Assembly (NCBI GenBank): GCA_964016885.1
Contig: OZ024748.1
Location: 51,584,001 to 51,648,000, forward strand
Direction of reading: 5' to 3'
Length of the DNA: 64,000 nucleotides
DNA from: Eledone cirrhosa
Lineage: Eukaryota
In this document: piece by piece, positions 17,022 to 17,400 of the stretch
Position numbering within the stretch: position 1 is the first letter of the stretch
How the letters are laid out: each line of letters begins with the position of its first letter
Notes under the pieces: model-generated
The model's input: only the letters and a program-made list of their open reading frames with translations
Told to the model about the DNA's origin: nothing
Databases searched by the model: none
Position numbers and translations under genes: made by a program

Positions 17022-17400
17022 TGATAGCTTCAGGTCTTCAAAATGATTTTAATTAAACATACGGTATATTGCTAAATATACTATGCATACATTCATGTAT
17101 ACATCGCTATTTCAGAGCACCAATCCTAATACTTCATTTTTGGTGGACCAGCAATCGCTCTGTATAATCAGCTCCTGATTATTACTGGAATTCTATAAGA
17201 ATCCAGCTTCTATAATTTTCAGCTGAAGAGGGCAGTTCGTAGCTCTGATGATTGCCAAACAGCATGAAACAGACTGTTAGCTTCTCTGGCTTCTTTCGCT
17301 GAAAAGTCACTACTTTAAAAATGATAGCCTAAGGTCTTCAAAATGTTTTTAATTAAACATACGGTATATTGCCAAATATACTATGCATACATTCATATAT
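17022..17400 (+). mobile_element. Hammerhead-bearing element family 1: ~300-nt monomer plus ~75-nt direct terminal repeat
   Basis: AGTCACTACTTTAAAAATGATAGC...ATACATTCAT occurs at ~17025 and ~17305. The hammerhead lies at 17241-17282. Confidence 0.8.
17241..17282 (+). ncRNA. Type I hammerhead ribozyme motif
   Basis: AGCT-CTGATGA-TTGCCAAACAGCAT-GAAA-CAGACTG-TT-AGCT. Stem I extends to TTTTCAGC (17216) / GCTGAAAA (17305). Confidence 0.75.

Follow-up and report, generated by a model that had tools for sequence, protein, structure and literature searches.

Animal non-LTR retrozymes are non-coding repeats of 150-450 bp with low GC content that carry a type I hammerhead ribozyme with a weak stem III, and they are found both as dimers to long arrays and as dispersed copies in genomes in which Penelope-like elements (PLEs) co-occur (Cervera and de la Pena 2020, PMC7229834; PMC7761336). 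The accessible parts of these two reports show expression and RNA circles, propose mobilisation of retrozymes by PLEs, and state as open points which enzyme spreads animal retrozymes and whether the circles serve as its template; according to the review (PMC7761336), metazoan retrozymes carry no motif that points to a partner. A preprint presenting retrozymes as non-autonomous PLE derivatives (bioRxiv 10.64898/2026.07.22.740005) arrives at the same class of partner that we arrive at here. As far as its available text goes, that conclusion rests on co-occurrence and on homology to the PLE terminal repeat (pLTR) in 35 vertebrate genomes, whereas ours rests on insertion anatomy, pLTR homology being absent in the 59 loci that we compared; the words "tail", "inversion" and "initiation" do not occur in its main text. 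PLE insertions, in the portions of the literature available to us, consist of a copy with an inverted, 5'-truncated second copy and a 30-40-bp tail at one end, and target microsatellites or (TA)n (Craig et al., 10.1101/2021.04.23.441226; Arkhipova et al., PMC3846280). According to the accessible part of an in vitro study, the tail is the segment between two internal start sites of the reverse transcriptase (RT), and insertion is independent of ribozyme cleavage (Frangieh et al., PMC11167929).

We analysed a stretch of 64,000 nucleotides of the Eledone cirrhosa genome, called the window below, which contains one copy of such a hammerhead repeat at 17005-17396 (the window copy) and a sister insertion around 40313. 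The window copy sits between TA runs, and neither element carries a long open reading frame (ORF). The parts of the two elements are listed in Table 1, where E1 and E2 are the two sites at which most sampled copies of this repeat end on their 3' side: E1 follows TTCAT, and E2 follows CTAAT ~28-33 nt further on.

Table 1 Features of the window copy and of the sister insertion (window coordinates)
Feature	Position	Strand	Remarks
Retrozyme copy	17005..17396	+	~1.3 units; 3' end without tail, at E1 (TTCAT followed by (AT)n)
Redundancy, first copy	17005..17104	+	begins within a short hairpin, at its loop; 5' half of the hairpin absent
Internal copy of the ~28-33-nt E1-E2 segment	17097..17130	+	optional "tail" in other copies
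Predicted type I hammerhead, long stem I	17216..17304	+	core parts in the next two lines
Hammerhead core parts, window copy	CUGAUGA 17245-17251; GAAAC from 17266	+	stem II UGC/GCA
Stem III and predicted cleavage site, window copy	after GUU at 17278	+	stem III of 3-4 bp
Redundancy, second copy	17305..17396	+	terminates at E1
Inverted arm, sister insertion	40201..40313	-	5'-truncated; terminates at E1, no tail
Direct arm, sister insertion	40313..40631	+	~one unit; E2 end with tail 40598-40631, then (AT)n
Predicted hammerhead, sister direct arm	CUGAGGA 40422-40428; predicted cleavage after GUC at 40457	+	

In the preliminary description the window copy started at 17022 and had a terminal redundancy of ~75 nt. 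Alignment moves the start to 17005, where the short hairpin is read from the sequence of intact copies, and extends the redundancy to 100 nt (17005-17104 versus 17305-17404, 94% identity), with six mismatches, two of which fall into the terminal TA run. A segment of 14-15 nt that most copies have before the position equivalent to 17305 is missing from the window copy, and its unit is therefore 300 nt; the same deletion was present in 2 of 65 junction matches, duplicates included. With its single ribozyme, the window copy would be unable to free an RNA of unit length by being cut twice.

The relation to the sister element had been described as the same sequence blocks in a different order. Indeed, two aligned blocks are swapped: 17136-17404 matches 40313-40605 (75% identity, E 7e-54), and 17003-17131 matches 40500-40632 (82% identity, E 1e-32). 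The segment 40313-40632 is, however, the right arm alone of a larger inverted insertion, whose left arm, missed earlier, lies at 40189-40313 as an inverted match of 40471-40603 (89% identity). The difference between the two elements follows from their different 5' stop points together with the two alternative 3' ends. Each of them has as its neighbour a repeat whose head is tRNA-like and whose tail is a simple repeat (17413-17750 on the minus strand and 40820-41150 on the plus strand); it has an Rfam tRNA match at 17685-17742 (31.3 bits) and is probably a SINE. The window also holds a 1,364-codon open frame at 28600-32691 (-) that weakly matches KIF21A-like and CYTH Pfam entries and is probably a long exon of a host gene, and a 475-codon frame at 104-1528 (-) with RT and PHD matches, a LINE-type fragment that shows no link to the repeat. 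A repeat search over the whole window was dominated by microsatellites.

The genome searched comprises 2,995,841,428 bases (3.0 Gb). It contains 1,844 exact matches to a 29-mer located upstream of the ribozyme, 2,351 exact matches to a 23-mer of the tail and at least 3,451 matches to a degenerate hammerhead-core pattern, counts that are lower bounds on segments and not copy numbers; the reversed control of each pattern gave 0. Because thousands of matches stand against none in the controls, the repeat family is not a product of chance, and the window copy is one among thousands of copies of a short non-coding repeat with a predicted hammerhead. The full unit measured 313-320 nt in 40 of 46 units, giving a family unit of ~316 nt. 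Like the published non-LTR retrozymes, the repeat is non-coding, has a unit within ~150-450 bp and a low GC content, and contains one type I hammerhead per unit. Dispersed copies lie on many chromosomes and are ~2.5% away from their nearest sampled relative, and head-to-tail dimers to multimers are also present (L004, L099, L067 and an array of ~17 units). The latter (L281, G000:C1:82390500-82395950) belongs to a subfamily with U3:A8 in the ribozyme core. Its units are 83-97% identical to each other, with ~89% at every distance (Spearman -0.01), as a single event would give. A distant subfamily forms perfect 310-nt tandems (L067:258-960) and looks young.

A type I hammerhead is defined by the core elements CUGANGA, GAAA and NUH on three stems, of which stem I is open. 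Both predicted hammerheads of the window have this layout, with CUGANGA, a stem II of 3-4 bp, GAAAC, a short stem III, GUU or GUC at the predicted cleavage site and a long, interrupted stem I. At the gathering threshold Rfam detected no ribozyme in the 64-kb window; the sole hammerhead match was a weak one to HH9 at 17228-17300 (19.3 bits versus a cut-off of 52, E 0.046). The change of stem letters with retained pairing that had been reported for the two elements is present in their sequences, both in stem II (T-TGC/GCA-T versus ATAC/GTAT) and in distal stem I (TTTTCAGC/GCTGAAAA in the window copy versus TTTTCAAC/GTTGAAAA at 40313-40632). We then built an alignment of both window copies and the ribozyme regions of a position-ordered sample, using 89 out of 97 (eight were left out for length), and scored pairing on a hammerhead structure specified by hand. 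Paired cells amounted to 88.3%, compared with 80.6% after shuffling and 44-53% in slid controls, and 28 of the 35 hammerhead pairs showed two-sided changes; the claim of covariation on the hammerhead is supported by these values, which are inflated by the relatedness among copies. The compensatory changes affect both stem I and stem II as well as the core tertiary pair C3:G8, which in 90 rows was C:G in 63, U:A in 16, U:G in three and unpaired in seven. When 525 pairs of variable columns were ranked, the ten predicted pairs took ranks 1, 2, 4, 6, 11, 12, 15, 17, 18 and 48; false pairs that travel together within subfamilies ranked between them. The long hairpins folded better than shuffled sequences (z -2.4 and -6.2). 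Against the structure stand the isolated hammerhead cores, which folded no better than shuffles (z about 0), and RNAalifold, which recovered stem I alone. The distant, young-looking 310-nt subfamily retains the overall hammerhead layout with other letters in its stems: stem III is palindromic, the site is GUA, and the letters of distal stem I are fully changed yet paired. In one insertion (L129) the same core-breaking changes occur in both inverted arms, which suggests gene conversion between the arms or copying of an RNA with an inactive ribozyme.

To locate the ends of the insertions, we used 86 loci among the first 100 listed matches of the 29-mer, with four duplicates removed, and mapped them on 46 natural units; top-scoring DNA matches, which favour copies covering the whole query, were excluded from the end statistics. 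The 89 insertions had 138 outer 3' ends, of which 56 were at E1, 54 at E2 and 28 elsewhere, the last group speaking against our preferred explanation. The clustering at the two sites is far from uniform (binomial p 2e-88, 14-nt windows), and a TA run was found at 95 of the 110 E1/E2 ends. The position of E1 is blurred because it sits in an AT-alternating stretch, and this stretch could act as a lure for recombination with (TA)n. The 5' ends spread across the whole unit. A cluster of 5' ends seemed at first to lie immediately downstream of the ribozyme; it was due largely to alignments that broke off in a variable stem and was not borne out by the 46-unit reference set, with 4 of 140 5' ends within 170-180. 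A second, inverted arm with both 3' ends facing outward was present in 49 of the 89 insertions. Where both ends could be classed, one was at E1 and the other at E2 in 28 of 33 inverted insertions (p 3e-5); at least one end at neither site was found in 16 of the 49. Copies of this repeat thus show alternative 3' ends ~28-33 nt apart with a tail on one arm, variable 5' truncation, an adjacent inverted arm and a TA-rich target, as PLE insertions do. Random permutation of the copies, which had been predicted from the two window elements, was not observed, the 3' ends being fixed at two sites in 110 of 138 cases. One tandem without any ribozyme core also has such an end: at L257:818-1406, ~2.4 units of 247 nt end at E1 before a TA run. 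The ~17-unit array, in contrast to what our explanation would lead one to expect, ends at neither E1 nor E2.

We compared this pattern with the PLEs of the same genome. Of 10,596 candidate GIY-YIG matches, 150 were scored; an RT was present in all three long ORFs scanned, and two of these three also had a C-terminal GIY-YIG domain. A cysteine motif precedes the nuclease in the RT/GIY-YIG ORFs, which, by the available text of 10.1101/2021.04.23.441226, points to the Neptune or Nematis type. At least four PLE families of this genome have two alternative ends before (TA)n, one of them with four short and six tailed ends (n=10). Their tails, read by eye, are roughly 30-65 nt long, and minimal hammerhead-like motifs are present. 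In the families represented by L171, L177, L188 and L189, such motifs lie 3' of the PLE ORFs, several with U3/A8 instead of C3/G8 and with a palindromic CCGG stem III, and the L174/L179 family has the C3:G8 form with stem II letters identical to those of the window copy. As described in the accessible parts of 10.1101/2021.04.23.441226, PMC3846280 and PMC11167929, canonical EN+ PLEs of the Neptune type likewise have two 3' ends, a tail on one arm, an inverted 5'-truncated arm, TA-rich targets and a hammerhead upstream of the 3' end. The repeat differs from them in having no ORF, in a seamless junction of the unit with itself instead of a partial tandem of truncated copies, and in a full type I hammerhead with a long stem I instead of a minimal form.

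No RT/GIY-YIG ORF was found in cis at the mapped repeat copies, although such ORFs occur elsewhere in the genome, and these copies are therefore not autonomous PLEs. The fixed ends tied to an RT/GIY-YIG ORF that the preliminary description had considered were thus found in part: the ends are fixed, but no such ORF accompanies them, 60 PLE loci having been checked. These 60 were drawn from the 150 scored GIY-YIG places, and in the 3' regions of 59 PLE loci, forming nine clusters, no sequence homology to the repeat was detected, so that no partner family emerged from this sample, a point against our explanation. A match that looked like such homology (L152) arose from insertion of a retrozyme into the TA run of a PLE end. 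Retrozyme copies within the TA run at a PLE 3' end occur at two loci (L152 and L057), a placement consistent with a target shared by retrozyme and PLE. Because the copy ends match those of the PLEs in the genome, the repeat is likely copied by PLE enzymes.

The shape of the copied RNA was addressed with a second, tail-seeded sample, chosen because the first seed forces arms across the cleavage site; it comprised 79 loci after deduplication from 92, from which one further duplicate was dropped. More than 10 nt beyond the first cleavage site were reached by 29 of 58 tailed arms, and only 3 of the 32 arms at risk stopped within 10 nt of the site (expected 3.6), so the site was no barrier. Arms exceeded 330 nt in 12 of 58 cases in this sample, and 63 of 140 arms were longer than one unit in the first, which is biased to long arms. 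The junctions between units had the same 16-nt spacer in 57 of 63 cases and were off by 1 nt in the remainder. At least two cleavage sites were spanned by 11 of 140 arms, from which release of a monomer would be possible in principle. Since copying proceeds past the cleavage site and the junctions are seamless, the copied RNA likely continued across the ribozyme site as well as the unit junction, as it would in a circle or in a multimer left uncut. Duplicated segments within insertions differed by a mean of 7% when direct and 5% when inverted, compared with a median of 13% between loci. Both parts of an insertion usually come from one subfamily, and this divergence fits circle and multimer alike. 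The circular template of the preliminary description was therefore borne out as far as the greater-than-unit, seamless copies are concerned, and an uncut multimeric transcript would produce them equally well. Fixed 3' ends are compatible with a circle because, by the available text of PMC11167929, the PLE enzyme starts reverse transcription internally. We put the chances of a circular template at roughly even.

With good though not full confidence, we interpret the window copy as a 5'-truncated non-LTR retrozyme for whose copying a Neptune-type PLE supplied the RT/GIY-YIG protein in trans. In the mechanism that we propose for the observed family, its end geometry, its seamless junctions and its covariation, copies or arrays with two ribozymes would be transcribed and would cut themselves, and the monomer would probably be ligated to a circle. 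After nicking (TA)n DNA, the PLE protein would begin cDNA synthesis at an internal position of the RNA, either E1 or E2, which lie ~28 nt apart; synthesis would pass the ribozyme site, round the unit and halt at a variable point, and the inverted arm would result from renewed initiation at whichever of the two sites had not been used. On this proposal the tail is on one arm only because the second start uses the other site. It is conceivable, though we hold it to be somewhat less probable than its negation, that the ribozyme-made circle itself is the direct substrate of the Penelope-like RT/endonuclease, two-site internal initiation priming an end-less RNA and rolling past one unit, with recognition by structure and not by a shared pLTR sequence.

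The main competing account keeps the PLE enzyme and replaces the circle by a linear, uncut multimer transcribed from tandem master arrays, the ribozyme serving processing or stability. Long arrays of ~17 units do exist, and the seamless junctions and the read-through fit this account as well as a circle. In the accessible part of PMC11167929, unprocessed RNA was the main PLE substrate in vitro, ribozyme mutants were still inserted, and uncut RNA with dead ribozymes was copied equally well, which weighs against our own explanation; so do the ribozyme-less tandems at L257, which terminate at E1 and have no simple account under a ribozyme-made circle. However, linear copying only shortens, yet many successive subfamilies left copies longer than a unit; the sole array examined is old, with 83-97% identity between its units, compared with dispersed copies ~2.5% apart; and the catalytic core was selected across subfamilies, which implies that cleavage mattered for spread. 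We regard copying from a linear multimer as a tentative possibility, to be expected in about one case out of three.

Three further accounts give up more of the proposed mechanism. The repeat may be the solo pLTR of an autonomous PLE family that was not found, its copies being 5'-truncated insertions and partial tandems; the end geometry is PLE-like, and the minimal hammerhead of one Neptune family shares the stem II letters of the window copy. No mapped locus has a unit running upstream into an ORF, though, and at 63 junctions the unit continues into itself, while the long covarying stem I and the stem III are unlike the minimal PLE ribozymes of this genome, which makes this origin improbable. 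The reading of the preliminary description, in which a circle was reverse-transcribed from arbitrary priming points into permuted copies without any link to PLE ends, accounts for 5' ends across the whole unit and for the frequent greater-than-unit copies in both samples, but not for 3' ends concentrated at two sites or for the single tail in 28 of 33 inverted insertions, and we consider it very improbable. Slightly less probable still is a satellite-like DNA repeat whose redundancy and inversions go back to duplication at the locus and the repair of hairpins, a passenger ribozyme being carried along. Tandem arrays exist, and some inverted arms are near-identical, as in gene conversion, the arms of 12 of 62 pairs being at least as close to each other as to the nearest other copy; against this stand the dispersal of thousands of copies over many chromosomes, their 3' ends fixed and their 5' ends variable, and compensatory changes that include the tertiary core pair.

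In comparison with the published animal retrozymes, as far as PMC7229834 and PMC7761336 are accessible, the sampled copies of the present repeat are mostly dispersed, truncated or inverted and end at two fixed 3' sites, with the tail on one side; expression and circles were shown for the former. The literature listings that we covered, with most subscription journals and bioRxiv supplements outside their range, contained no report of this repeat from an octopus or another mollusc and no tail signature on a retrozyme. We conclude that the repeat is a non-LTR retrozyme family new with respect to that literature, and that its mobilisation in trans is likely due to PLE enzymes. The non-LTR retrozyme class and its link to PLEs had already been published; what is added here is a retrozyme whose ends bear the signature of PLEs.

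To summarize, this family of non-coding ribozyme repeats bears the mechanistic imprint of PLEs, namely a pair of start sites and a tail confined to one arm. Its hammerheads form a naturally varied set in which paired positions change together, with the switch from C3:G8 to U3:A8 as one example. With two named sites and candidate enzymes from the same genome, the questions of partner and template become testable in the existing in vitro PLE assay. Should the ribozyme-made circle prove to be the direct substrate of the PLE enzyme, the family would be a genomic record that joins the circle model of retrozymes to the biochemistry of PLEs.
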